Of a DNA stretch of 64,000 nucleotides, positions 560 to 22,403 are shown in pieces. Below the pieces are notes generated by a model, which saw only the letters and a program-made list of their open reading frames with translations, searched no databases and was not told the origin of the DNA. Position numbers and translations under genes: made by a program. The DNA is from an uncultured Myxococcales bacterium (GTDB lineage: Bacteria > Myxococcota > UBA727 > JABDBI01), in contig CAYJDW010000004.1 in assembly GCA_964368985.1 (NCBI GenBank), positions 3,046 to 67,045 on the forward strand. The letters are read 5' to 3'. Every line of letters begins with the position of its first letter. The stretch's first letter is position 1.

Positions 560-2890
560 TCAAAGAGAAGCTTGCCCCATCCAATACTCAATCCTCGCCA
601 AAGCATCATTAACGGAAATAATAATCGCCGCCTGATTGGTAGTATTAAGTATGTTTAAGTAGCTTTCTTTAGCCTGAAGATAGTTTTTTAATTGATAATG
701 TGTTTGCGCTAACATTAACGTGGTTTCTTCCATTAAAGAACTCGGGAGTAAACTGTTAGATGCCATAAGCTCATTAATAATCATCAACGCTAACGCATAA
801 TTTTTATCTCTCATAAGCATGCGCGCATAGAGATAAGACCCAGTATAATAAGCTTGATTCTTAGTGCTACTATTTTGTCCTATATTCACGCCCAAGATAG
901 CGGCTTTGGACACGATTTCATCCGCTTTAGCAAAAGTAAAGCCAAGGATAGCCTGGGATTGTGCATTGAGATTTTTGTCGGCGAGCAGCAGTTTGGCAAT
1001 CGACAGGGCTCTTTTGACCGGCTTTGTGAGATAATTGGCATCAATACTATTGAGGGTTTCTAAGGCCAAAGCCGCTTGATTTTGGTGAATCAGGCAATCG
1101 CTGAGATTAAGCTTCAAGTTATTGAGGCGAGGATCATGGGCAGGCAACATGTCTTCTAAAACTCTCATTATTTCAGCTGCAAGCTCATAACGCGGCTTTT
1201 CTAGAAGGCTTTCTTGGGCTGCAAAAAGTAAAGATATTTGTGCATCTTTGGGCAAGGTGGCGATGCTTGCCAGTGCCGAGGTGTGGTTATCGTTCTGCAA
1301 GTTGCGGCTGAATGCGGCTTTTTCGCGGCGATATTTGTCCTTGCAATTATTGCCTAAGATACTGTGGCCTAAGAAATTTCTTTGGGCCCATAAAATAGCG
1401 TAGCCCTGCACCGGGTGTGACATTTTTTTATTAAATTCTAGAAAGGCCGTATCTCGATCTGCTGGCGTGGCAAAGAGGCTATCAATAGTGCCATGCTCAA
1501 TTAGGCTTTTAAGACGCTCGGTTTTTTCCGGCGCGAGAGGATTGTTCAACACAAATTCCAAAAAAGCACCGGCAAAAATATAGGAAGAGCGCGGGTGGGT
1601 TAAGGCAAAGGCCGTGGGGTTTATGCTAAAGAGTTTCGCTAAATCGACACTGGCACCGGCTTGGTGGATAGCCTGCGCTTGCTCGAGCATGGTTAAATCA
1701 TTTTCTATGGCCAGTTCTGGCGTCAGGTACATGGCGAGGCCTTCAGTAAGCGCCATGTTGGGGATAATGCCGAAACGCCCCGGCACTCCGAAGAGAGTGT
1801 TCGCATATTCTCCCACGTAGATATGGGCGAGCTCATGACCAAGAACTGAGTGTGGCACACGCATTTCAGAGATATGAATTTCTCGGTGCGCAGGGAGCGC
1901 GAAATGAACATTTGCGGCTCCGGTATAAGCAAGTTTCAACTCATCGCTGGGATGGAGCCAAATAGTGATAGGTGTGGCAAGGCGGGGAGGGAGAATATTT
2001 TTTATGCGACCTTGGTAAAATAAGGCTTCATCAAGTAAATCCTTCGCTTGTTGTTCAGATACTAATTGCGGATCAGCCCGTACGGTGATGCCATTTTTTG
2101 ACAATGCCAAGGAATAATCATTTTTAAGATCGGCATGGTTTTTGCCGATACTTTTTAGGCTTTGCCAGTGGATTACGCTCGCCGAGATCAGCAAAAGCAA
2201 AATCAACATTGAGTTTGCAATAGGCGATTTGATCACGTTTTTAAATAAATTATTGCGGGCGGAAGTTTGAAAGGTCATGCCAAAGAGAATGAAAGCCGCC
2301 GCAAATAAAAGTGTCGCAATGCGGAAAGCCACCATCCCTAAAGATAATGCGCTGCCTGTTAAAAGGTCAGTGCTCAGCATGATGGATGCATGCGATAATA
2401 TACGAAAAGTCGTCTCTTGCCACCAAGAAAATAATATCCATGAAAAATAGGCAGCATAGCCCACCAAAAATACGGTTATACGCAGCCAATAGGGCCTAAT
2501 TATGGTGGCAATAAGAGAGCCGATAGCGATATTTAGAATGATGGGCGGAACGAGGCTAATAAAAAAAGGAATGAAGCCCGCGCCTGGACTACAGCTGTCG
2601 CTGAAAATACCGTTGTAACAGAGCAACAAGGTGAAAAAAGTTAGCGTCGCGATGGCCCATAAAGATTGGTGGATAAAAACGTGACGAAAGTTGACGATAC
2701 CTTTAGCGGTTTTATGTAAGACGCTTGCCAAACATAAGACGGGCGCGAAAAAGAGGACAAATAAATTGGCCGCTTCAAAACCCACCGTGCTTACCAAGGG
2801 CATGTGGTTGGTGAAAAGAAAGTGGAGCAGCACGAGGATAAAAATTATCCCGTGCACAAATAGGAAATTCACCTTTGGCCATTGAAACAC
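560..2890 (-). CDS. polytopic membrane protein fused to an HEXXH (gluzincin-like) metallopeptidase domain and a TPR-like helical C-terminus
   Basis: 776-aa ORF. The N-terminal ~240 aa are strongly hydrophobic (multiple TM helices). It carries GHELAHIYVGE...ALTEGLAMY (HEXXH plus a downstream Glu). The C-terminal third has TPR-like amphipathic repeats. Confidence 0.7.
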   Translation of the reverse strand: MFQWPKVNFLFVHGIIFILVLLHFLFTNHMPLVSTVGFEAANLFVLFFAPVLCLASVLHKTAKGIVNFRHVFIHQSLWAIATLTFFTLLLCYNGIFSDSCSPGAGFIPFFISLVPPIILNIAIGSLIATIIRPYWLRITVFLVGYAAYFSWILFSWWQETTFRILSHASIMLSTDLLTGSALSLGMVAFRIATLLFAAAFILFGMTFQTSARNNLFKNVIKSPIANSMLILLLLISASVIHWQSLKSIGKNHADLKNDYSLALSKNGITVRADPQLVSEQQAKDLLDEALFYQGRIKNILPPRLATPITIWLHPSDELKLAYTGAANVHFALPAHREIHISEMRVPHSVLGHELAHIYVGEYANTLFGVPGRFGIIPNMALTEGLAMYLTPELAIENDLTMLEQAQAIHQAGASVDLAKLFSINPTAFALTHPRSSYIFAGAFLEFVLNNPLAPEKTERLKSLIEHGTIDSLFATPADRDTAFLEFNKKMSHPVQGYAILWAQRNFLGHSILGNNCKDKYRREKAAFSRNLQNDNHTSALASIATLPKDAQISLLFAAQESLLEKPRYELAAEIMRVLEDMLPAHDPRLNNLKLNLSDCLIHQNQAALALETLNSIDANYLTKPVKRALSIAKLLLADKNLNAQSQAILGFTFAKADEIVSKAAILGVNIGQNSSTKNQAYYTGSYLYARMLMRDKNYALALMIINELMASNSLLPSSLMEETTLMLAQTHYQLKNYLQAKESYLNILNTTNQAAIIISVNDALARIEYWMGQASL

Positions 2891-10550: not shown

Positions 10551-11485
10551 TAGTTGCCATCAACTTGGCAATCAATCTTTTCTCTCAATTGCTCCATCTC
10601 AAGGCGAAGTTTTAAGCCATTCTCAGTCAGGGTCAAATTATAAGGGCGGCCATTGAACAAAAAGGCAGGCGTGCCGAGGAGTTTTAGATCGTTCATGGCA
10701 TGGTCACGATGACCTTTAACTTTTTTGGCGATGTCATCACGCTTGAGGTCTTTTTCAAACTGCGCCATTTTCTGTACATCAAACAGCTTTTGAGCAAGCT
10801 CTTTAATGGCGGCATCGCTTAAAGGACCCTCATGGGTGAACAATAAATCGTGCATCTCCCAAAACTTTCCTTGCAAGCCTGCAGCCTCAGCAGCAATAGC
10901 AGCCCTTTCAGCGTTCGGATGAGCGCTGAGGGGAAAATGCATAAAATAAAGTTGGACTTTTTGGTCGTTATTTTTCACTAGATTGGAGATCGCAAGGTGC
11001 GCAACACGGCAAGCCGGGCATTCAAAATCAGCAAATTCGATAATAGTTAAGGGTGCATTTTTATTGCCTTTTTGATAGGCACCATCGGTTTTTACCTGAA
11101 GCGGTGTCGCGAGGTAGCCACTGCTTATTTCCTCTGTCAAACCCTGAAAAACATAGCGTTCAGGATGCCCCAATTTAAGTTGATCCGCGGCCCATTGGGC
11201 CAGCATAATCCCTGGCTTACAGCCTTTTTCCATGAGAAGGCATTGAGCAAAAGTTTTTGGGCAAGCGCAGGGACAAATCTCATCATTGAAAAGTTTTGTG
11301 AGCCCACCGAGCTGCTCTTTACTTAAATCGGCGAGATTGAGCGTAGGAAATTCAGTGATTTGGTTTTTCACTGCGGGCACTTCGCTCGGGGCTTCGTGCA
11401 AAACTGGTTTTTCTTCTTTTTTATTGCAGCCTTTATTGGTGCAGGAGACAAGGCATAGGCTGAGGGCTAAATAATATAAGTTCAT
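10550..11485 (-). CDS. DsbA-family thiol:disulfide oxidoreductase lipoprotein
   Basis: Lipobox LVSC at the N-terminus and a thioredoxin-fold active site FECPACR. 311 aa. Confidence 0.8.
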   Translation of the reverse strand: MNLYYLALSLCLVSCTNKGCNKKEEKPVLHEAPSEVPAVKNQITEFPTLNLADLSKEQLGGLTKLFNDEICPCACPKTFAQCLLMEKGCKPGIMLAQWAADQLKLGHPERYVFQGLTEEISSGYLATPLQVKTDGAYQKGNKNAPLTIIEFADFECPACRVAHLAISNLVKNNDQKVQLYFMHFPLSAHPNAERAAIAAEAAGLQGKFWEMHDLLFTHEGPLSDAAIKELAQKLFDVQKMAQFEKDLKRDDIAKKVKGHRDHAMNDLKLLGTPAFLFNGRPYNLTLTENGLKLRLEMEQLREKIDCQVDGN

Positions 11486-11657
11486 GCTGTAAATTCCTTA
11501 TCGCCAGGGGTGAAACACCAGGCTTGCACCATCTAAAAAGGCTTACCATGACAGTATCGGTGCTTTTTTTAAAGATGTTGTGGCAAGGAAAAATTCGGGG
11601 TGGCCTGGGTTTATAGGAGCTTGTCAACTCCAATTGAGCGCATTAGAAAGCCCTATA

Positions 11658-12683
11658 ATGAGAAAAATTTTAGCATTTGAAAGCAGTTGTGATGACACCG
11701 CCGTGGCCATAATCGATGAGCAGGGCCGCATTCTAAGTGATGTAGTTCATAGTCAAGTGATCGAATATGCCCCTTATGGCGGCGTCGTGCCTGAGGTAGG
11801 CTCGCGTGCCCATATCGAACAAATTTTAGCGACGACGAAGAGGGCGTTGGCAGATGCTCAGCTTAAAGTAGAGGATATCGACGTAGTGGCGGTGACCCTA
11901 GCTCCTGGTTTAATCGGTCCTTTGTTGGTGGGAGCAAACTTCGCCAAAGCATTTGCTCTTGCGCGCGGCATCCCTTTGATTGGGGTGCACCATATCGCAG
12001 GCCATGTTTTAGCTGGTTTTAGCGAGCCTGGCTTTCCAAAAAGTCCTTTTATGGCCTTGATTGCTTCGGGGGGGCATAGTGCTATTTATCATTGTCACGA
12101 GGATTATCGCATTAGCCTCGTGGGCGAAACGCTTGACGATGCGGCGGGTGAAGCTTTCGATAAAATAGGAAGAGCTTTAGGCTTAGGTTATCCTGCCGGC
12201 AAAAAGATGGATCAATTGGCACGGGGTGGGGATCCTACCCGTTTTTCTTTTCCTATCGCCATGCGCAAAGAGGCACATTTTAACTTCTCATTTTCCGGAT
12301 TAAAAACTCAAGCCATTCAGTGTATTCGAGAACAATCTCCCTTTAGCGAGGCAACGCTTGCAGATATTTGTGCTGGGGTGGAAGCCGCCATCGCACAAGC
12401 CTTGACGGAACGAACTCTGCGCGCACTTTTAGCCTCAGGTCTCAAGCGCTTGGTTATTGGCGGCGGGGTAGCGGCCAATACCGGCTTACGCACCTTATTT
12501 GAAAAAGAATGCGCTAAAGCAGGTTTTGAACTTTATTTGCCGCCCAAGCGTTTATGTACCGATAACGCCGTAATGATTGCTCGAGCAGCTCTCCTAGATC
12601 TTAAACATGGCCGTTCAAGTCCACTGACCACTGATGTTAGAGCAAACCTTCCGGTCGATCAGGCACGGGTGCTTACGGAATAA
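11658..12683 (+). CDS. tsaD: tRNA N6-adenosine threonylcarbamoyltransferase TsaD
   Basis: MRKILAFESSCDDTAVA..., GVHHIAGH and GGVAAN motifs. The ATG at 11658 is preferred over the upstream alternative start at 11580. Confidence 0.93.
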   Translation: MRKILAFESSCDDTAVAIIDEQGRILSDVVHSQVIEYAPYGGVVPEVGSRAHIEQILATTKRALADAQLKVEDIDVVAVTLAPGLIGPLLVGANFAKAFALARGIPLIGVHHIAGHVLAGFSEPGFPKSPFMALIASGGHSAIYHCHEDYRISLVGETLDDAAGEAFDKIGRALGLGYPAGKKMDQLARGGDPTRFSFPIAMRKEAHFNFSFSGLKTQAIQCIREQSPFSEATLADICAGVEAAIAQALTERTLRALLASGLKRLVIGGGVAANTGLRTLFEKECAKAGFELYLPPKRLCTDNAVMIARAALLDLKHGRSSPLTTDVRANLPVDQARVLTE

Positions 12684-12685
12684 TT

Positions 12686-12805
12686 CGCTCAGGTTTGGCT
12701 ATCGCCCAGGCCAATGGAAAGAAGTTAGGGCGCCAAGCCGGGGATAAACCAAAATCGGATAAGTTAGCGTCAGGGGAAAGTTTCGGGGCAAATAACAGTA
12801 TCTAA
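12686..12805 (+). pseudogene. serine recombinase (resolvase/invertase) fragment
   Basis: The frame reads RSGLAIAQANGKKLGRQAGDKPKSDKLASGESFGANNSI*. It resembles the resolvase E-helix/linker (xGLxxAxAxGKxLGRPxG). There is no catalytic domain upstream (tsaD ends at 12683) and no HTH downstream. Confidence 0.5.
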
Positions 12806-13017
12806 TAATGTGATCAAATCTAATCTTAGCTGCTCAAATCTAATCCTTTCTTGCAGGCCAAAGAATTTGAAAACACCTTACGTTCGTAAGAAATATTATT
12901 TTTCCAAGTGTCAATTTTATAACTTTGGTATTAATTTCTCTATATTTGATCCAAAAATCATAAAATAAAAGCGATAAAGCTGTAGTTTTGTTATGACAAA
13001 TAAGGGAGATTATCATT

Positions 13018-13518
13018 ATGAATAAAAGAAATATTATATCCTTATTTGTTGGTGGGTTATCTTTGGTTGCATTGAGCATTGATGCGCACGCAGATAGCAT
13101 TAAAATTAACGTTCCGCCGGCTGATCAGTCCATGTACAGCGAAGGAAGAGAAAGCCGCTGGGTATATTGTGGTGTGGTTGATGGGAAAAAACGTGATGAC
13201 GAAAATCGACCACTTTTTGTTCAAGTTGTTAAAGTCGAGGTGCCCAGGGAACAAGTGTCTGTAGAGATCGAACGAGACAAAATTCCCGCGGGCCCTATTG
13301 TATACCCTATTCCTCAAGCAGATGGAACTATAGCTCCAGGCGCTATGGGACAAAATAGTCGTGGTAGGCTTGAAAAAGGTGAAGGATTTTTTTGTTTATA
13401 TAATAGACAATGGGAAGGAAGATCAATATCTTTCATAGGATTAAGCGTAGAACAGAATGTGAAAGAAATAACTTTTAAAAGTGTTGATAATAGAGATGTG
13501 AAACAAGTGATCTATTAA
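13018..13518 (+). CDS. secreted hypothetical protein
   Basis: 166-aa ORF with AAGGGAG 8 nt upstream of the ATG and a signal peptide (...LVALSIDAHA|DS). AT-rich context. Confidence 0.6.
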   Translation: MNKRNIISLFVGGLSLVALSIDAHADSIKINVPPADQSMYSEGRESRWVYCGVVDGKKRDDENRPLFVQVVKVEVPREQVSVEIERDKIPAGPIVYPIPQADGTIAPGAMGQNSRGRLEKGEGFFCLYNRQWEGRSISFIGLSVEQNVKEITFKSVDNRDVKQVIY

Positions 13519-13774
13519 TAGTTAGTGTTTAATAAATATGTCACGCGTAGGGCTTTGCCAATAGGCATTTTACTGGATGGCCACGCCCTACGGGCTCGCC
13601 ATGATGAAAGGAATCATGGATCCAAGAAAAATGCCCGCTGGGCAGTAGCTTCGGGCAATCCTGCGCAAGGAACTCCCATAGTCGGTTAGGATTTTTTGAA
13701 ACTAGAAGGGCAATAAATATAATAAATAAAGCAACTGCTATATAATCAGTAAATGCTATGCGGGGGGCATTTAC

Positions 13775-14626
13775 ATGAAAAAATATTTGCTTTTAATGAT
13801 ATCTTTATTGGTTCTTTTATTTATTGGGGGAGCCTGCTCCAAAAAAAATGAAATCGGTCCCGACTGTAACATAAATGGGGCCTGCAGTGAAAATGAAGCC
13901 CCTATTGATTCGGCAAATATCGTGCCTGGCATAGGTGCCTCCGACAAATTCGTCGATTGCGAGCCAGGAAAAGTTTGTAGTTGCCAAGGAGCGGGCTGCG
14001 CCCTTTTATGTGAGAAAGCTGGAACCTGTTCGTGCGCCAGCCAGAATTGTAAAATCCTTTGTGCCGATCAATCACATTGCTCATGTAGTGGTGAGCGCTG
14101 TTCCATCGATTGTGTCGAGGGCGCCGGCTCTTGCAAATGTACCGGCAAAGACTGCCAAGTGATCAAACACGATACCTGTGCGCCAGGGCAAAAATGCAGT
14201 TGTAGCGAGGAGGATTGCTCAGTGGAGTGCGGGGTCGGTGGCGATTGCACTTGCTCAGGTGCTGGTTGCACCACAATCTGTGCCGCGGAAGCCTCTTGCA
14301 ATTGCACCGGAGAAAATTGCGGAGTTTTGTGCGTCGAAGGTGGCAAATGCAAATGCGAAGGTCCGAGGTGCCTAAATATGCCAATTGGAACCTGCAAGGA
14401 TGGTCAAAAAAGTTGTACTTGCGATAAGGCGACTTGTTTAGTTAGCTGCATCCCAGGAGCGGCGTGCTCGTGTTCAGGGGAAAAATGTTCAATTATTTGT
14501 GACAGCGCTTCTACCTCATGCTCATGCACCGGCAAAGAATGCATCGTTGGCGGCTGTCCTGCCAACGACAAACGCTGCTCTTGCACAGGTCCTGGCTGCT
14601 TAGTGGTGGACGGCTTGAGCCCTTAG
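13775..14626 (+). CDS. cysteine-ladder repeat lipoprotein (CxCxGxxCxxxC units)
   Basis: 283 aa. Signal peptide with a GGAC lipobox-like site, followed by about 13 units of a 17-21 aa repeat (e.g. CSCQGAGCALLCEKAGT, CSCSGERCSIDCVEGAGS). Roughly one residue in five is Cys. Confidence 0.75.
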   Translation: MKKYLLLMISLLVLLFIGGACSKKNEIGPDCNINGACSENEAPIDSANIVPGIGASDKFVDCEPGKVCSCQGAGCALLCEKAGTCSCASQNCKILCADQSHCSCSGERCSIDCVEGAGSCKCTGKDCQVIKHDTCAPGQKCSCSEEDCSVECGVGGDCTCSGAGCTTICAAEASCNCTGENCGVLCVEGGKCKCEGPRCLNMPIGTCKDGQKSCTCDKATCLVSCIPGAACSCSGEKCSIICDSASTSCSCTGKECIVGGCPANDKRCSCTGPGCLVVDGLSP

Positions 14627-14640
14627 CCCCGAGGAAAAAG

Positions 14641-14672
14641 GCTCGTGCCAAAAATTTTCTCAAGGCACGAGC
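14641..14672. terminator. bidirectional hairpin between convergent genes
   Basis: gctcgtgcc-N14-ggcacgagc, a 9-bp stem between the stops at 14626 (+) and 14682 (-). Confidence 0.5.
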
Positions 14673-14681
14673 TCTCCAAAA

Positions 14682-15332
14682 TTATATATTTAAACGAACA
14701 TAAAATGCGCCATCAGCCCCATGAACTCCATGGGCATAAGATATTTCTTTAATGTATTTTTGAAATAGATTTTCTTGTGTCCAAAGAAGAAAATGATACT
14801 TAATTAAACCAACTTCTGTTCCGTCACTTAAGTATTCAACATTTTTACTGTGCTGACCTTTTCCGGTAATAATTAAAACAAATTTCTTCCCTAATTTGGA
14901 GGCATCTTCTAAAAATGCAGTGATTAGTTCTTTGGCTCGATTTACTCTTTTACCATGTAGATCAAGCTCATCCTCTGGTGAAAACTTGTAATCTGTAGGC
15001 AGCAAAGGGCTGTTGCTTAGATTTTTAACAGCAGTGGTTGATGATGCAGGTTTCGAATCATCAGAGGGATGAGCAGGTCGGCGAAGGTTAGCTGAAAGCT
15101 TCTCAATGCACTGTTTAATCCATTCATTTTTTAAAAGACCGTCAGCTTTCAGCGCAGAACTTCGCCCTGTATTTATTTCAGTCTTGCGAGCTTTTTCCCA
15201 TTGCACATCGCACCCAGTGCGAGGGGCAGAGGCCTTGTTTTCCAAGCTTGATAAGTCAGGATTTTCACACGCTAGTATCGCATGGGGAATTACCAGAGTG
15301 AAGAAGAGGTTAAATAATAATATTTTATGCAT
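14682..15332 (-). CDS. Smr (small MutS-related) domain lipoprotein
   Basis: C-terminal LDLHGKRVNRAKELITAFLEDA...LIITGKGQHS...GADGAFYVRL matches the Smr pattern (LDLHG...IIHGKG...GGxGA). N-terminal signal with lipobox ILAC. Confidence 0.7.
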   Translation of the reverse strand: MHKILLFNLFFTLVIPHAILACENPDLSSLENKASAPRTGCDVQWEKARKTEINTGRSSALKADGLLKNEWIKQCIEKLSANLRRPAHPSDDSKPASSTTAVKNLSNSPLLPTDYKFSPEDELDLHGKRVNRAKELITAFLEDASKLGKKFVLIITGKGQHSKNVEYLSDGTEVGLIKYHFLLWTQENLFQKYIKEISYAHGVHGADGAFYVRLNI

Positions 15333-15495
15333 AGATACTTTCCTGAATAAATTAGTTAACTCATGGATAAAAGTGAATTTTATCTGTTAAATTATGTATT
15401 ATATTAGCTTGGATCAAGCATTGGTTAATATTAGATAAGCTGAAGCCCCATTCGGTAGCTAAAATTCTAAGCGGCCAGAAGGTAAATCCAGGATC

Positions 15496-16683
15496 TTACT
15501 TATCAATTTCCTCAGCACTAATGCCAAGAGAAGTCAGGATCACCGGCAGATCGTTTAGATCCAAATACAGAAGTAAATGGGGAATAGCCTGGGCGATGAA
15601 ATAGGCGGGGCTTCGTAGGTGAAAGGTGATAGCTTGTTCTTCGTCGACGAAGAGGGCCGCTTTAATATCCCCTTCGGGCCCCTCAATTTCTCCGAAAGCA
15701 AATTTTTTTGAGCTGTTTTTGAGAATAATCTCTTTCTCTTCCCTCAGGGGTTTAGGCTCAAGGCCTTCGGTTTTAAAGCGGTTCAGGGTATCTTTCAGCC
15801 ATAGAGCGCTCGATTGAATGTCGCGAATTCTTAAACTTAGGCGGGCCAAAGCGTCGCCGCCTTCAGCAATATTTATTTTAGGCAAAGGACCGTAGTCAAT
15901 GGAGGAGTTGGCGCTCCCTCTTAAATCATAAAAATTTCGATTAGCTCGTATGAATGCGCCGCTTAAGCCTAATGAGCTTGCGAGAGTGAGGTTAATAATA
16001 GCTTTTTTTCTTAGCTGACCCTGAATAGTTTCATATTCAGAACTGATATCCATGTCGTCGATGATTTGTATAATAGCTTCACTTATTTCTAGAAGATCTC
16101 GTGTAGCTAAAGTGCTAAGAGAATTTTGTGGGGTATTATTATTGACAGTACCGAGCATGAGAGCTTCACTTTTTATTAGATTTTTTCCGCTCCGCGCTAG
16201 GTCGAATAAATTATCTGCATTAAGGCTCATAAAAATATCTTTGAGGACGCAAAAATGGTGATATATCCGCGCCACCTCCAAGGCCAGTGCTCTCATTTGT
16301 TTTATTTCTAAACTGGCATCGTAATCTAATAAATTTTCATAAGCCGAGACGAGGGCCAACTGATAAAAAATTGGTGTGCGATGGTTAATTCTTGCAATGC
16401 TATTTATACCTTCAATAAAACTATTCTCAGCAATAATCTGTTCAAGGTCGTGACAGAAATAGCCGCGACTAACCTGACTGTTGATAATCCTCGAGCCAAG
16501 CAATTTAAGTTCCAAACCAATTTTAATAGCCAGGCGATCAAAAAATGGATTTAACGCGTGACTGGCGAGCTGAGTCATGGTGGGGGAGACATTGCTGGTG
16601 CTTGGCGCGGATTGATAAAGTTCTTTCTGCTGAAAGCGCGAAATCAATAAAGTGTTGTCTACGGGAAGAGCTGATCTTTTCAC
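15496..16683 (-). CDS. highly divergent NuoD / [NiFe]-hydrogenase large-subunit-like protein
   Basis: By-eye motif matches to NuoD/Nqo4: RGYFCHDLEQI (cf. IGYLHxGxEK), MRALALEVARIYHHF (cf. IRVIxxELxRIxxHL), GLSGAFIRANRNFYDLR (cf. GLTGxxLRASGVxYDxR), GDALARLSLRIRDIQSS (cf. GDxxxRxxVRxxEMxxS), and the C-terminus LRSPAYFIAQAIP...LTSLGISAEEIDK (cf. RAPSFxNL...SLDxVxGEVDR). The GPQHP motif is absent. GTG start with AGGAG 6 nt upstream. Confidence 0.65.
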   Translation of the reverse strand: MKRSALPVDNTLLISRFQQKELYQSAPSTSNVSPTMTQLASHALNPFFDRLAIKIGLELKLLGSRIINSQVSRGYFCHDLEQIIAENSFIEGINSIARINHRTPIFYQLALVSAYENLLDYDASLEIKQMRALALEVARIYHHFCVLKDIFMSLNADNLFDLARSGKNLIKSEALMLGTVNNNTPQNSLSTLATRDLLEISEAIIQIIDDMDISSEYETIQGQLRKKAIINLTLASSLGLSGAFIRANRNFYDLRGSANSSIDYGPLPKINIAEGGDALARLSLRIRDIQSSALWLKDTLNRFKTEGLEPKPLREEKEIILKNSSKKFAFGEIEGPEGDIKAALFVDEEQAITFHLRSPAYFIAQAIPHLLLYLDLNDLPVILTSLGISAEEIDK

Positions 16684-16692
16684 CTGTCACTC

Positions 16693-17100
16693 CTAGCTTT
16701 CATCTATATCAAATTTAAATTTCTTGCTTATATCGCTTTCAAGCCATCGCGCGCCCGCAAATAGCGAAGCAATACTAGGTATTAAACTTGCGCCTTGATT
16801 ACTTTCGATCACTATATTGACGCGATAAGGCAATTTTAAGCTTTTTAGTTGATAAATTATTTCATGAGTTGATTGGGGATCGATAACGTCATTCTTCCAC
16901 GGTAATAATTTTGTTTTTATAACAATAATTTGATCCAGAAGCGTCAAGCGTGTATCAGGATCATGCTTTAAAAAATAACTCGCGGCATTCAAATGGCTCG
17001 GATCTACTTTTATAAAATAACCCTCAGCCAAGGCAAGATCATCTTGAACAATGAGACTTCCTAGACGCTGGTCAAGAAGAGATTTTAGGCTTTTAAACAT
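16693..17100 (-). CDS. divergent NuoC (30-kDa subunit)-like protein
   Basis: EIIYQLKSLKLPYRVNIVIES..IPSIASLFAGARWLESDISKKFKF parallels the NuoC core (vvYxLxS...rirvkv...PSvxxiwxxAnWxEREvxDmFGixF). 135 aa. It overlaps the upstream ORF by 16 nt. Confidence 0.6.
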   Translation of the reverse strand: MFKSLKSLLDQRLGSLIVQDDLALAEGYFIKVDPSHLNAASYFLKHDPDTRLTLLDQIIVIKTKLLPWKNDVIDPQSTHEIIYQLKSLKLPYRVNIVIESNQGASLIPSIASLFAGARWLESDISKKFKFDIDES

Positions 17101-17480
17101 CGACGAGCCTCAAAAATTAATTGTGCGAGATCAGTTTTATCAAGCAGGCATTGAGAAAGAGTTTTATTGATTTTAAAATTAGTAATAGTGGATGTTGATG
17201 TTTTGTTGTGAATACGATTATCACAGCCATTTATATGCAGTAAAAAACTATTTTTTGGCAAATAAGTTAAATAGGTAGTGATATCGACGGATAATTTGCT
17301 CGAAAGGCTTCCCCAAATCACCAGCATATTCGCTTCAAAAATAGAGGTTGCATCATAACAAAGATGATGTTTGCTCAAATTTTTTCGCGCAAATTCACGA
17401 GCCATATTTGAACAACACGTCGTGCCAAGGATTTGAAAAATATTAACGGGGATAGCCCAAGGAGGCATGAGACTCTTCAT
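17085..17480 (-). CDS. divergent NuoB (PSST / hydrogenase small-subunit)-like protein
   Basis: TTCCSNM, ANMLVIWGSLSSKL, INGCDN and SQCL line up with NuoB CCxxEM, ADxMxVAGTxxxKM, GxCAxxGG and PGCPP. All four N2-cluster Cys positions appear retained. The ATG at 17480 forms an ATGA overlap with the upstream stop. Confidence 0.6.
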   Translation of the reverse strand: MKSLMPPWAIPVNIFQILGTTCCSNMAREFARKNLSKHHLCYDATSIFEANMLVIWGSLSSKLSVDITTYLTYLPKNSFLLHINGCDNRIHNKTSTSTITNFKINKTLSQCLLDKTDLAQLIFEARRCLKA

Positions 17481-17779
17481 ATTTTTCTGCCCGATTTTTT
17501 TCTCCACCACCAAAACAAGAAAGGCGTGAATAGAGCGGAGATTATTATGGTGTTTTGTTTGTCATGAAGAGATAAATTTTGTGATATTAACAGAAATAAT
17601 AAAGACACCCAAAGGTTAAAAAATAACATGATGGTTAGCAAAAAATCGTCGGGTAAAATCATGGGTGCAAGAATTTTTTTTAAGGGCATTTCTTTAGATA
17701 GCCATAATCCTCTGAACAAGGCCGCCAGGACAATTAAAATTATTATGATGACGAGACTTAAGATTATTTTTTGTAACAT
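17477..17779 (-). CDS. small three-TM membrane protein in the NuoA position (NuoA-like)
   Basis: ~100 aa with three hydrophobic helices, first gene of the A-B-C-D ordered cluster. Sequence similarity to NuoA is weak. The start is uncertain (ATG at 17779, or TTG at 17815 as in the ORF track). Confidence 0.45.
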   Translation of the reverse strand: MLQKIILSLVIIIILIVLAALFRGLWLSKEMPLKKILAPMILPDDFLLTIMLFFNLWVSLLFLLISQNLSLHDKQNTIIISALFTPFLFWWWRKKSGRKI

Positions 17780-17901
17780 TGATTGACCCGGGATTTGGCA
17801 AATATCGTTACCCAAAATGGTGATAAGATTAATATAACAGGCTCTGGCTTAGCTGATAGTGGCTCTTCGTGATTTTTTTATTTTATTACCCGGGAGGGGC
17901 G

Positions 17902-19134
17902 ATGTTTCGAAATGAAGATGTAGAGGCAGCATACTCGCGAATTAAAAATGATATTATTTTAAGTCCATGCCTTTTTTCGCCATGGCTCTCTAAGGCCACG
18001 GGGGCGCAAGTATTTCTCAAATTGGAAAACATGCAGCAAACCGGCTCGTTTAAAGAACGGGGGGCTCTTAACTTTTTACTCTCTCGGCCTCGTGGATCGA
18101 TCAAGCAGGTGGTGGCGGCATCAGCCGGCAATCATGCGCAGGCGGTGGCATTGCATGCGCGTAAACTGGGAATTCCTGCCGCTATTTTTATGCCACTTGG
18201 AACATCGAATACTAAAATTCTTCAAACTGAAAAATATGAGGCGCAGGTAAAATTAGTAGGACAAAATTACGACGAGGCTTATGCCTGTGCCAAGGAATTT
18301 AGTAAGGAGCATGACGCGGATTATTTACATGCCTATAATGATCTCGACGTCATTATTGGCCAAGCGACGATTGGACTTGAAATTAATGCGGCCATTGGCG
18401 TACCCGATTTTATTTTTGCGCCTATTGGCGGCGGTGGATTATTTTCTGGTATTGCCCAATATTTCGCCAACAATAAAGCCAAAGGTCCCAAAATGATCGG
18501 TGTCGAGGCTTTGGCATTTCAATCAATGGCGCAGGCTCTGGATAAAGGTCGACCTTTTTCTTTGAACGGTGAAAAAACCATTGCCGACGGCATTGCGGTG
18601 CGAAAGGTGGGCAGTTTGACCCATGAGATTTGTGCCAAACTAAACCCAACTTTAATAAGTGTCGATGATGACTGCATTCAACATGCGATTATGGTGTTAT
18701 TGGAAAGACAAAAAATTGTCACTGAGGGAGCAGGGGCCGCTGCTACCGCCGGACTTTTACTCGATACATTTAAAAATGAATTGGTGAATAGAAAAGTTGT
18801 GGTTGTTGTTTCGGGTGGAAATATTGATATCAGCCTTTTGTCGAGGTTGACTGGGCAGGAGTTGATCAAATCAGGTCGTTTGTGTCGTATGTCGCTGGTC
18901 ATCAAGGATACGCCTGGATCTTTGTCCCGTTTACTCTCGAGTATTACGCGGGCATTTGGCAATATTGTTGATATTCAGCATGAACGTTCATTTGCTGTAT
19001 TGAGATGGAATGAAGTTTTAGTTCATGTGACGGTAGAAACTAAAGATGAAATTCATGAAAAAAATATGCTATCTCTACTCATGGAAGAAGGATATCAAAT
19101 CAAAACTCTGATGGGGAATAATTTTGTTTCGTGA
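17902..19134 (+). CDS. ilvA: threonine ammonia-lyase (threonine dehydratase) with a C-terminal ACT-like domain
   Basis: The PLP lysine motif TGSFKERGA and GGGGL. GGGAGGGG lies upstream of the ATG at 17902. ~410 aa. Confidence 0.85.
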   Translation: MFRNEDVEAAYSRIKNDIILSPCLFSPWLSKATGAQVFLKLENMQQTGSFKERGALNFLLSRPRGSIKQVVAASAGNHAQAVALHARKLGIPAAIFMPLGTSNTKILQTEKYEAQVKLVGQNYDEAYACAKEFSKEHDADYLHAYNDLDVIIGQATIGLEINAAIGVPDFIFAPIGGGGLFSGIAQYFANNKAKGPKMIGVEALAFQSMAQALDKGRPFSLNGEKTIADGIAVRKVGSLTHEICAKLNPTLISVDDDCIQHAIMVLLERQKIVTEGAGAAATAGLLLDTFKNELVNRKVVVVVSGGNIDISLLSRLTGQELIKSGRLCRMSLVIKDTPGSLSRLLSSITRAFGNIVDIQHERSFAVLRWNEVLVHVTVETKDEIHEKNMLSLLMEEGYQIKTLMGNNFVS

Positions 19135-21022
19135 TGGCGAAAAAACACCACTTCAAAGCCGAAAAAGTTTGCCCATTAGCTGGCGCCTTTCATTGCATAT
19201 CGCCGCCATGGGAAGCCTTCTTTGTCTGAGCGTGCTTTTGTCGCTTTTGCCTTTTCAATATGGTCGCGTGGAGCAAGAGGCCATCACCGAGGCACGCATA
19301 CTTGCTGAAGCCGTGTCGGCGATTTATCAGCGCCTAGGTCCCGGCGAGCCCAAAGATTTTGCGCGAAAACTTCTTCTTCGCGTGGCGCGTACGCCGCATA
19401 TTTCCGTCGTAAATGTTTATGATGAGCGAGGTATCGTTCGCTACAGCACTGATTCGCGGGAGCTTGGTAAACATTATGCCTTTCGTCTCGGCGTCATTCG
19501 CGAGGAAAATACCCTTACCGTGAGCCATGTTGCCATTGATTCAAGCTCTGGGATCGGCAGTGTTTCAGTACTCATTGATCGCGATTTGATGCTTTTAAGC
19601 ACGCACCGTTTATTCGCGCAAGTTGGCATGGGTTTGTTAGGCGTAATTTGCATTTTGTCCTTCCTCGTTAAAGGTTTAGCGGAAAGGCTGGTAAGTTCCC
19701 GTTTGGGGCGCTTAATGAATTTCATTGAAGATGCCGAAAAAGGTTCTTTTTTGATTCGCGCAGAAGTGGATCGTAACGATGAGATTGGCCACGTTATCGT
19801 GGGTTTTAATCAGCTCTTAGGGGTGATTACCCAAATTGAAGCTCGTGCTTTAGAAAAAGAACATAATTTGCAGGATGCCGAGGCGCAAAAACATATGCGC
19901 TTGAAACTCGAAGAGACTCTTTTTAAGCTGGAGCGTTCCAATGAACGTTTAAATGGCAAAGTCCAAGCGCAAGAATTGCTCATGGAAGCGGCCCACCGTC
20001 TTGGCGGTACCTTGCAACGTGAATCAGTAGTGGAAAGGCTTGCCAATCTGGTGCAGGAAAAACTTGCCTGGCCTCAATTTGCCGTTTTTTTAATGGAGAC
20101 CAAAAATCAGGATCGATTCGCGCTCAAATTGGTCGCCGCCATTGGCATTAGCAAGGACATTATTTCGCTCCACAGCCAAGTGCTGATTGGCGAGGGAATT
20201 ACTGGCATTGTGGCACAAACGGGTGCTCCTTTAATCATCGCTAATCTTGAAAAAGAGAAGAGTTTGAAATTGTGGGAGCCGCAAAATCGTGAGGCGGATT
20301 CTCAGGAATTTGGCAAAACCGGATCGCTGATGGCGGTGCCGATGATTCATAAAGGACGTGTCTTAGGGGTTTTTGTATTTTTGCATCCTAAGATCAATAT
20401 TTTTGATAAAGAGCATGTTGATTTGATCTCCGCTCTGGGTGCTCAAACAGCATTGGCAATAATCAATGCTGAATTATATGAAACAACATTAGAACTTGCT
20501 ACCTCAGATCCTTTAACAGGGATAATGAATAGACGAGCAATGGTGCGACAAATAGAATATGAACTTACTCGCACACAGAGATTTAATACTGATTTAGCAT
20601 TGTTGTTGGTAGATGTGGATCACTTTAAAGCTTATAACGACCGCATGGGCCACGTTCTCGGCGATGTGGCTTTGAAAGAAATAGCTAATGCGCTGAAAGA
20701 AAGTATTCGAAAAGTAGATACGGTCGCCCGTTTCGGCGGCGAAGAATTTTGCGTCATCTTGCCACAAACCAGTGAAAAGGCCGCTTGCGAGGTGGCCAAT
20801 AAACTTTGCGAATCGGTACGGGCTTTAAAATTACGCGGCGCGGAAAAACAAGAACTCGGTCATTTATCCGTTTCGGTGGGGATTGCGGTCATTCCTGGCA
20901 ATGCGGACATTTTGGATCGAGAAGATATCTTGACGGATCTGATTGCCGCTGCCGACCAGGCACTTTACGAAGCCAAGGGCCTAGGGCGAGATCGCTTTAT
21001 GGTGAATCGGCACTTTATTTGA
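19124..21022 (+). CDS. membrane sensor diguanylate cyclase (HAMP-coiled coil-GAF-GGDEF)
   Basis: GGEEF active site with RKVD (RxxD I-site) 5 aa upstream, a GAF-like region and an N-terminal TM segment. The TTG start is uncertain. Confidence 0.85.
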   Translation: MFRDGEKTPLQSRKSLPISWRLSLHIAAMGSLLCLSVLLSLLPFQYGRVEQEAITEARILAEAVSAIYQRLGPGEPKDFARKLLLRVARTPHISVVNVYDERGIVRYSTDSRELGKHYAFRLGVIREENTLTVSHVAIDSSSGIGSVSVLIDRDLMLLSTHRLFAQVGMGLLGVICILSFLVKGLAERLVSSRLGRLMNFIEDAEKGSFLIRAEVDRNDEIGHVIVGFNQLLGVITQIEARALEKEHNLQDAEAQKHMRLKLEETLFKLERSNERLNGKVQAQELLMEAAHRLGGTLQRESVVERLANLVQEKLAWPQFAVFLMETKNQDRFALKLVAAIGISKDIISLHSQVLIGEGITGIVAQTGAPLIIANLEKEKSLKLWEPQNREADSQEFGKTGSLMAVPMIHKGRVLGVFVFLHPKINIFDKEHVDLISALGAQTALAIINAELYETTLELATSDPLTGIMNRRAMVRQIEYELTRTQRFNTDLALLLVDVDHFKAYNDRMGHVLGDVALKEIANALKESIRKVDTVARFGGEEFCVILPQTSEKAACEVANKLCESVRALKLRGAEKQELGHLSVSVGIAVIPGNADILDREDILTDLIAAADQALYEAKGLGRDRFMVNRHFI

Positions 21023-21185: not shown

Positions 21186-22403
21186 GTGGCGCTTATAAAT
21201 GATGAGCAAAGAGAAGTAGCGGAAATAATTTCCTTTCAAGTTTCTTATAGCCGGCAGCATATTAAAGCTACGTGGGGCCTAGCTATTGTCATTGCGCTTA
21301 CGTTCCTTTTGGAAGAGTTATTTGGCGGCAGTACGAGCACTTCTGTACTGGTCCGGATGGGGGCCAATGTTAAGGAATTGGTGAGTGAAGGTCAGTATTT
21401 TCGATTGATGTCGTCGGTATTTTTGCATTCTGGATATATGCACGTATTTTTTAATACCTATGTATTATTTGCCTTAGGTGGATTTTTTAATCGTATTCTT
21501 GGTGAAGCTAAATATCTGACGGTATTTTTTGTGTCTGGAATTGCAGGTTCCTTAGCGAGTTTTTATTTGGGAAAAGCTGCGATCAGTGTTGGCGCCTCCG
21601 GCGCGATTTGGGGATTATTTGGCGCGAGCCTTGCCTTGGCTTTCTTTAAAACTCGCCTCATTCCCGAGGCTATTCGCTTACGTTTAAGAAAAGTTACTTT
21701 GATAAACCTTGCCATCAATCTGGGCGTGTCGTTTTTGCCTATGGTAGACATGTGGGCTCATATTGGCGGTGGCGTTGCTGGATTTTTATGTAGTTTGTTG
21801 ATGATATTCCATAGCAATAGCCAGGCTATCAATCGTCTTAAAACCCATCTCTTTCAATTTTTGGCGACATTTTTATTTTTGACTTATTTAGTAAGCATGG
21901 TTTTTGTTATTGCTAGTTATCGTCCTTGGCAAGATCAATTTAGTGCTGATTTAGTCGAAGTCCCCCTCGTAGGAGTGCCCTTTTCGGTCGAGATACCCAA
22001 AGGCTTGGCACTAAAAAAGAGTGAGGAAGGGCAGGCGCCAATTTTTCTCTTTGGTGACCTGACTTTTGATCAAATGGTTATTGAGTTGCAGTTTTATAAG
22101 GATCAAGTGCCAAGCCAACAAGCTCAAGAATGGTTAAGCAGCCAACAAAAACAACTTCTCCAAGATCCCACGGTGGGAAGCGATATTAAGAGATCCCTAG
22201 ATTTAAGAAATCCTGCTGGCGGACCTGAACTTTTTTATAAACTTGAACCAAAGGGTGATTTTGTCGCCTTCACTTTTGTGATTGTGCGGGAAGGCTATGC
22301 CATTAAAATGATTTTTGTGAGTGAAAAATCAACGCCACAGGCGCAGGTGGAGAAGCTGGCGCGACAGGTGATTGATAGTATTAAGAGCACGTCCAATAGT
22401 TAA
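21186..22403 (+). CDS. rhomboid-family intramembrane serine protease with a C-terminal extra domain
   Basis: HSGYMH, GASGAIWGLFGA (GxSG) and AHIGGG motifs. About 170 aa of non-membrane C-terminal extension. Confidence 0.8.
   Translation: MALINDEQREVAEIISFQVSYSRQHIKATWGLAIVIALTFLLEELFGGSTSTSVLVRMGANVKELVSEGQYFRLMSSVFLHSGYMHVFFNTYVLFALGGFFNRILGEAKYLTVFFVSGIAGSLASFYLGKAAISVGASGAIWGLFGASLALAFFKTRLIPEAIRLRLRKVTLINLAINLGVSFLPMVDMWAHIGGGVAGFLCSLLMIFHSNSQAINRLKTHLFQFLATFLFLTYLVSMVFVIASYRPWQDQFSADLVEVPLVGVPFSVEIPKGLALKKSEEGQAPIFLFGDLTFDQMVIELQFYKDQVPSQQAQEWLSSQQKQLLQDPTVGSDIKRSLDLRNPAGGPELFYKLEPKGDFVAFTFVIVREGYAIKMIFVSEKSTPQAQVEKLARQVIDSIKSTSNS

Follow-up and report, generated by a model that had tools for sequence, protein, structure and literature searches.

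Here we describe a compact operon with the gene order of the first four subunits of respiratory complex I, nuoA-B-C-D, found in a 64,000-nucleotide (nt) stretch of DNA from an uncultured Myxococcales bacterium (contig CAYJDW010000004.1, positions 3,046 to 67,045; hereafter the window). The original prediction held that four minus-strand genes lie here in this order, coupled to one another and with no other complex I gene nearby, and a base-by-base reading of the junctions confirmed both the order and the coupling. The four genes, referred to below as A to D, and the region upstream of them are as follows:

17780-17901: intergenic region of about 120 bp separating A from divergent PALP, GGDEF and rhomboid genes, presumed to hold the promoter of the operon.
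17477-17779, minus strand: A, a membrane protein of 100 residues that occupies the nuoA position and has three hydrophobic segments.
17085-17480, minus strand: B, a minimal NuoB/PSST-like protein of 131 residues with five conserved cysteines and an ATG start.
16693-17100, minus strand: C, a NuoC/30-kDa-like protein of 135 residues, comprising only the N-terminal part of the domain.
15496-16683, minus strand: D, a NuoD/49-kDa-like protein of 395 residues, with a GTG start at 16683.

A, B, C and D form one translationally coupled operon. The TGA stop codon of A and the start codon of B share an ATGA, the ATG of C is placed inside B to give an overlap of 16 nt, and an AGGAG lies across the TAG stop codon of C, with the GTG of D beginning 6 nt later. 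The mechanically called open reading frame of A opens further upstream, at a TTG at 17815, which would add 12 residues that are absent from its homologues; because all of these are 98-101 residues long and begin at the equivalent of the ATG at 17779, we set the start of A there. A scan for consensus promoters and terminators returned nothing above chance.

The assignment of C and D to complex I families was borne out by Pfam, in which D passes the cut-off of PF00346 (E = 3.5e-12, 46.4 bits against 24) and C that of PF00329 (E = 1.1e-7, 32.9 bits against 22.5). The divergence from genuine complex I subunits is as extreme as had been supposed, with D reaching only 75 bits where the NCBIfam NuoD equivalog models require 360-580. 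A profile built from 23 sequences of the D family matched the NdhH, Nqo4 and 49-kDa chains of the PDB at E values of 1e-25 to 1e-15, NdhH being the best sequence match (6e-25), and the NuoD-like chain of MBS (6u8y_L) at 2e-20; the hydrogenase large subunits MbhL and HycE were matched at only 1e-9 to 1e-10. An AlphaFold2 model of D, with a predicted local distance difference test (pLDDT) score of 84.6, was likewise matched by Foldseek to NuoD chains (E of about 1e-17, template modelling score 0.76) at 14-21% identity.

Within this recognisable fold the residues that bind the quinone head group are gone. The GPxHPxxHG segment that contains His38 is replaced by xxPFFDxLP, and the position of Tyr87 (RMDY) reads RINH in the window and is occupied elsewhere in the family by H, Q, L, K, R, N, M, F or P; the absence of the first motif and the reading RINH had been noted in the original prediction, and in our alignments D has lost His38 and Tyr87 alike. 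D401 is also replaced, and Asn occurs at the position of D86. Other parts of the protein are held constant: the alignment contains 24 invariant and 36 near-invariant columns, the histidine beside cluster N2 (in the RIxxHL motif, H143 in the window) is invariant, and HH142-143, RANR, EGGDA and EGPEG are invariant residues specific to this family. The N-terminal peptide LIISRLQQKE of D is conserved too. Neither the N-terminal nor the C-terminal CxxC motif that ligates a NiFe centre is present in window D, which has just two cysteines, in RGYFCHD and HHFCVLK, neither of them at the NiFe ligand motifs.

The B protein is more difficult to place from a single sequence, having no match in Pfam, PF01058 included, and only E = 0.017 with TIGR01957. 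A profile of seven B sequences supports the proposed likeness to NuoB, since 39 of its 40 matches in the PDB were PSST, NuoB or NdhK chains (best E = 3.4e-4), the fortieth being a glutaredoxin at E = 0.65. The predicted fold agrees, with Foldseek returning mainly PSST, NuoB, NdhK and MbhJ chains (template modelling score of about 0.6, 8-16% identity) for an AlphaFold2 model with a pLDDT of 79; this model was built on a shallow alignment because word-indexed protein searches with B gave five proteins. The profile alignment pairs GTTCC of B with GLACC and HINGC with SMGSC, so that CC22/23 and C86 align with the first three ligands of N2, and C111 corresponds to the fourth by spacing (CC-x62-C-x24-C, compared with CC-x64-C-x28-C in Nqo6). 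C22, C23, C86 and C128 are invariant across the seven aligned B proteins, and the fourth N2 cysteine is present in all seven, with a shift of one column in one or two. In the lineage of the window, the alignment thus finds all four ligand positions of the N2 [4Fe-4S] cluster occupied, as had been proposed, and B most likely still binds one such cluster, to judge from these positions and the model. Membership of a defence system was considered after PADLOC reported a weak partial match, over 75 residues, between B and the Dazbog protein DzbB (20 bits, E = 8.7e-5), which is probably compositional or due to chance.

C is truncated, covering the first two-thirds of the NuoC domain (positions 1-85 of the 124 in the PF00329 profile). 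The NuoA-like character of A, also part of the original prediction, stands on less direct grounds. A has no match in Pfam (PF00507 included) or the PDB, and comparison with NuoA by hhalign gave E = 0.25, although in an alignment that is in register over the second and third transmembrane segments and ends at FWWWRK against YEWWKG; an attempt at direct sequence proof that A is a NuoA therefore failed. What speaks for the assignment is its position in the operon, its size, three hydrophobic segments that lie, by hydropathy, at positions comparable with those of Nqo7, a C-terminal WW(W)-R/K motif shared with NuoA, and an indirect link through the A proteins of a sister clade described below, and the identity of A as a NuoA cannot be shown by sequence. 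The YECG loop of NuoA and the FDxE carboxylates of its second transmembrane segment are absent, with FNLW where NuoA has FDVE.

To place the operon in a wider context, relatives of D were collected by a word-indexed search, which gave 34 clusters from 100% down to 35% identity, and by an exhaustive hidden Markov model search of 1.84 billion representatives. The latter defined a first tier, which is the core family of about 27 representatives, and a second tier in which D scores 125-180 bits, with canonical NuoD scoring below. Genomic context is available for the first-tier loci L001-L011 and L014 and for the second-tier loci L016, L020 and L059, while L057 and L058 are cut at C-D by the end of the contig. 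Wherever there is enough context, in about a dozen loci and down to 27% identity in D, the unit recurs as A-B-C-D only and at one and the same locus, with the rhomboid and GAF-GGDEF genes divergent on one side (joined by PALP in the first tier) and convergent TsaD and DsbA genes on the other; in the first tier the entire block from MreB to SRP54 is syntenic. The coupling recurs as well. The 4-nt overlap of A and B was present in all five relatives checked, B and C overlap by 16 nt in first-tier relatives and by 4 nt in L016 and L059, and short overlaps are also found at the C/D junction. In one first-tier lineage from wastewater metagenomes the C and D genes are naturally fused and encode a protein of 527 residues (P0009; L003, 10001-11584).

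All reading frames seen at these loci are intact and of conserved length, with no frameshift or premature stop in any of them, in agreement with the original view that the genes are not decaying. Between the closest and the most distant locus, identity to the window falls from 59 to 27% for D, from 50 to 26% for B and from 62 to 29% for A, compared with 72 to 47% for TsaD and 78 to 40% for the GGDEF protein. The module diverges faster than its neighbours, a pattern that fits relaxed or altered selection and, with the frames intact, argues against decay. The AT-richness to which attention had been drawn is real, with a G+C content of 38.8% for the module against 45.3% for the window, within the lowest 1% of equal-size stretches, and G+C at third codon positions of about 0.30 in B and C. 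It does not mark foreign DNA, because synteny is conserved; a foreign island, at which the composition had hinted, is ruled out by a locus that is syntenic in all relatives and part of a vertically inherited core-genome block. The module is native to a deep, uncultured lineage labelled Myxococcales or Myxococcota, in which it has been inherited vertically at a fixed locus and its genes have been kept intact by selection. First-tier D, scanned for with first-tier patterns, occurs in two of 185,579 GTDB species representatives, both of them metagenome-assembled genomes labelled Myxococcota/Myxococcales, and in the relative P0007 the D gene (USN50506.1) lies on a contig of 2.5 Mb, which suggests small genomes.

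The second tier proved informative because its proteins are less diverged than those of the first. The B proteins of L016 and L020 pass the Pfam NuoB cut-off, that of L016 matching PSST/NuoB over its full length at 1e-16 and MbhJ at only 1e-6; the C proteins are full-length, at 160-230 residues, and include the C-terminal part with GHPLR(K/R)xYP; and the A proteins match NuoA by hhalign with a probability of 77% and E = 2e-5. Through this Pfam-positive B, full-length C and NuoA-matching A, the entire operon is tied to nuoA-D. For A, the step from the second tier to the first is itself weak (E = 0.09) and leans on operon position. All second-tier D proteins are without His38 and Tyr87, reading FGPxxxALPF and R(V/L)NP instead. 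The high-GC members L016, L018 and L020 have no cysteine at all in B, the CC, C and C positions reading LP, S and D, whereas B of the low-GC member L059 retains CC...GC...QC. It follows that the common ancestor had the cluster, and that one branch lost it while retaining the operon. In L016 (71% GC; 11332-15700, plus strand) D is followed by genes for an MscS-like channel (PF00924), a protein with ten transmembrane segments and a Na+/H+ exchanger (PF00999), their stop and start codons overlapping. We considered these as extra ion-translocating subunits and rejected the idea: they are not part of the core, because none of them follows D in L020, L059, L057 or any first-tier locus.

The profile comparisons also settle from which group of enzymes the module descends. 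Since the D profile finds NdhH and Nqo4 at 1e-25 and MbhL and HycE at 1e-9, and the sister-clade B finds PSST/NuoB at 1e-16 and MbhJ at 1e-6, these scores place its origin in complex I proper and not among hydrogenases of the Mbh or Ech type. The rest of that enzyme is not found in the vicinity, as had been claimed: the annotated genes of the window, and those in the 10 kb to its left, include none for Nuo, Nqr, Mrp or hydrogenase proteins. At about a dozen related loci the flanks, read over 8-10 kb, are likewise free of other Nuo genes (NuoH, NuoI and antiporter-like NuoL/M/N among them) and of Mrp and hydrogenase genes. No Rfam family reaches the gathering threshold in the 64-kb window, in which there is no tRNA, rRNA or riboswitch. 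In the JGI data the window sits on contig Ga0558120_00082, which is 703 kb long.

The genes that surround the operon and others in the window that bear on the biology of the organism are listed here:

19124-21022 and 21186-22403, plus strand: membrane GAF-GGDEF cyclase and rhomboid protease, on the divergent side of the A-B-C-D operon.
14682-15332, minus strand: protein with an Smr domain (PF01713, E = 2e-15) and, at its N terminus, a signal or lipobox-like sequence, described as convergent with D.
13775-14626, plus strand: predicted lipoprotein of 283 residues, almost wholly composed of short Cys-rich repeats (...C.C.G..C...C...), with no Pfam match.
30427-33618, plus strand: protein of 1063 residues that ends in a HECT domain of eukaryotic type (residues 794-1062; PF00632, E = 6.4e-31).

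In both tiers, almost every locus that reaches far enough has the GGDEF and rhomboid genes on the same divergent side, and within the first tier the GAF-GGDEF cyclase is more conserved than TsaD (78-64% against 72-54%). At the position of the Smr gene, relatives have a protein of 273-279 residues with no recorded Pfam match, and the Cys-rich lipoprotein is missing from the same position in more distant loci. Bacterial proteins seldom have a HECT ubiquitin-ligase domain, which is characteristic of effectors from bacteria that live with a host, and the protein in the window hints at association with eukaryotic hosts. Past the left end of the window, on a contig that encodes a protein identical to that at window 560-2890 (L013, 17526-22151), lies a small patch resembling a mobile element, with a tyrosine integrase, a Prim-Pol/DUF3987 primase, an HTH protein and a Y1 transposase.

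Taken together, we consider it rather probable that the operon is a relic of the Q module of complex I which has remained tethered to the membrane and been repurposed, most likely in a non-catalytic capacity. On this proposal A would be a small membrane anchor of three helices in the position of NuoA, B a minimal NuoB-like protein carrying one [4Fe-4S] cluster, C a truncated NuoC-like scaffold and D a full-length NuoD-like protein, with A tethering a subcomplex of the NuoB-C-D type. Quinone reduction of the complex I type would appear to be impossible, because the quinone ligands of D are gone and there is no NuoH or NuoI nearby. Because orthologous operons persist without the cysteines of B, the role common to the clade is probably non-catalytic, that of a membrane scaffold, regulator or sensor, and in the lineage of the window the retained Fe-S cluster may serve a structural or redox-sensing purpose. 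The divergent membrane GAF-GGDEF cyclase and the rhomboid protease, as the only consistently adjacent candidates, would be the partners to consider, and their arrangement makes a functional link with the module possible. As the conserved function of the family, the stand-alone Fe-S complex suggested in the original prediction is weakened by the Cys-less high-GC orthologues.

Several points weigh against this proposal. Unlinked NuoH, NuoI and NuoJ-N genes, or a second canonical nuoA-D, elsewhere in these genomes could change it. The low-GC lineages hold the four cysteines and a fifth, invariant one under long-term selection, which argues that the cluster matters there, and the function could be redox-catalytic in the low-GC lineage and different in the Cys-less one. 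The case for cluster binding itself comes from four aligned or suitably spaced cysteines and a model of medium confidence, and adjacency to the GGDEF and rhomboid genes may merely reflect a region that is syntenic in general. A bolder form of the proposal would be that complex I is missing altogether from these bacteria and that NuoABCD is the first known autonomous descendant of its Q module, a free-standing, membrane-tethered pseudo-enzyme acting as an Fe-S redox sensor or scaffold that may communicate with the adjacent GGDEF and rhomboid proteins, and in which the cluster has since become dispensable in some lineages; we regard this as possible and advance it only tentatively.

A different explanation, which we judge unlikely, is that this is a split but genuine complex I, with nuoH-N (and perhaps nuoE-G) elsewhere in the genome, no other nuoA-D, and the present fast-evolving subunits assembling with those products. 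It stays alive because split nuo clusters are known in groups of the former Deltaproteobacteria, for example Bdellovibrio, and because the NuoD of cultured Myxococcales is itself unusual, carrying H38S, D86N and D401N, as is their NuoA, with C39A (Degli Esposti 2015, PMC4758237). The D family shares the Asn at the D86 position, the order A-B-C-D is that of the first four genes of the nuo operon, and the sequence examined covers just the locus and its flanks. However, the equivalog scores of D and the low identity of both D and B to their best structural matches are far from what a working subunit would lead one to expect. Few bacterial proteins evolve as slowly as the real complex I subunits that touch NuoH and NuoI, whereas the proteins of this module evolve faster than TsaD. 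Moreover, His38 and Tyr87 are both lost, with no constraint at the Tyr position, the YECG and FDxE motifs of NuoA are gone, C is truncated, and the sister-lineage B without Fe-S ligands rules out electron delivery to quinone in that lineage.

Alternatively, A-B-C-D could be a stand-alone redox enzyme, a membrane Fe-S oxidoreductase that passes electrons from a soluble donor such as ferredoxin to an acceptor bound in a remodelled NuoD pocket. The four ligand cysteines and the fifth conserved one in the low-GC lineages, the four also present in L059, would suit such an enzyme, and the invariant H143 beside N2, together with HH142-143, RANR, EGGDA and EGPEG, indicates a conserved site. Yet a lone [4Fe-4S] cluster without a second redox centre makes a poor catalyst, no subunit of the NuoI or NdhS-like kind is present for docking of a donor, and Cys-less orthologues retain the whole operon, such that we find this explanation quite doubtful. 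That the four frames are turning into pseudogenes after the loss of complex I from a reduced genome is very improbable: fast evolution, low G+C and low third-position G+C, weak database scores and the small genome (about 2.5 Mb) of a relative would all be in keeping with decay, but intact, length-conserved frames at one locus in about a dozen loci, from 100% to 27% identity in D, with strongly conserved D motifs and conserved coupling, speak against it.

The closest known entity to the repurposed relic we propose is the Q module of complex I itself, that is Nqo4, Nqo5 and Nqo6 with the loop of Nqo7 in Thermus thermophilus, NuoB, NuoCD and NuoA in E. coli, and the 49-kDa, 30-kDa, PSST and ND3 subunits of mitochondria. 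The gene order and the four folds are the same, the tandem cysteines, the N2 positions and the histidine beside N2 are retained here, and the fusion of C with D in the P0009 lineage recalls NuoCD of E. coli. In contrast to complex I, neither the operon nor its surroundings include NuoH, NuoI, NuoJ-N or NuoE-G, the quinone ligands and the NuoA motifs are lost, B and C are shortened, scores are far below equivalog cut-offs, and sister lineages of the module are without Fe-S ligands. The 11-subunit enzymes (NDH-1 of cyanobacteria and plastids, archaeal Fpo and 'NUO11') resemble the module in being reduced and without an NADH module, but they retain NuoH, NuoI, antiporter-like subunits and the substrate pocket, and the module has just A-D.

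Subunits of the NuoD and NuoB type without the ancestral catalytic ligands have been described before, in the Ehr, Mbx and MBS complexes, of which the function is largely unknown, and Ehr complexes were defined together with Mrp antiporter-like membrane subunits (PMC6349859). Unlike Ehr, the present operon has no Mrp-like or NuoH-like subunit adjacent to it, and its B and D are nearer to complex I than to Mbh or formate hydrogenlyase. Atypical NuoD and NuoA proteins have also been described in antibiotic-producing Myxococcales, as parts of a full complex I, and the NuoD changes reported there do not include Tyr87 (PMC4758237). Compared by published description, those proteins and D have in common quinone-chamber substitutions at His38 and of the D86N type; D differs in having other residues at Tyr87, at D401 and across the HPxxHG segment, and its operon ends after D. 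Literature searches on nuoABCD-only modules and on Myxococcota endosymbionts found no description of the present module, with most subscription journals outside their coverage.

On a practical level, these genes are a trap for annotation. In the source records the relatives are labelled 'hypothetical protein', 'NADH-quinone oxidoreductase subunit D' or 'Ni,Fe-hydrogenase III large subunit', and such labels could wrongly credit genomes with complex I or hydrogenase activity. To our knowledge, complex I subunits normally occur only within large, slowly evolving respiratory or hydrogenase-type assemblies, and a conserved operon of NuoA-D only would be unusual: the quinone site has been given up, and so, in some lineages, has the Fe-S cluster, yet the operon remains under selection over deep divergence. 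The significance of the module hinges on whether other nuo genes lie elsewhere in these genomes. If its repurposing is confirmed, the operon would represent a natural case of an enzyme module turned to another use, and would provide a natural minimal Q module in which the folding of NuoB, NuoC and NuoD with an ND3-like anchor, and the binding of N2, could be studied without the rest of the enzyme.

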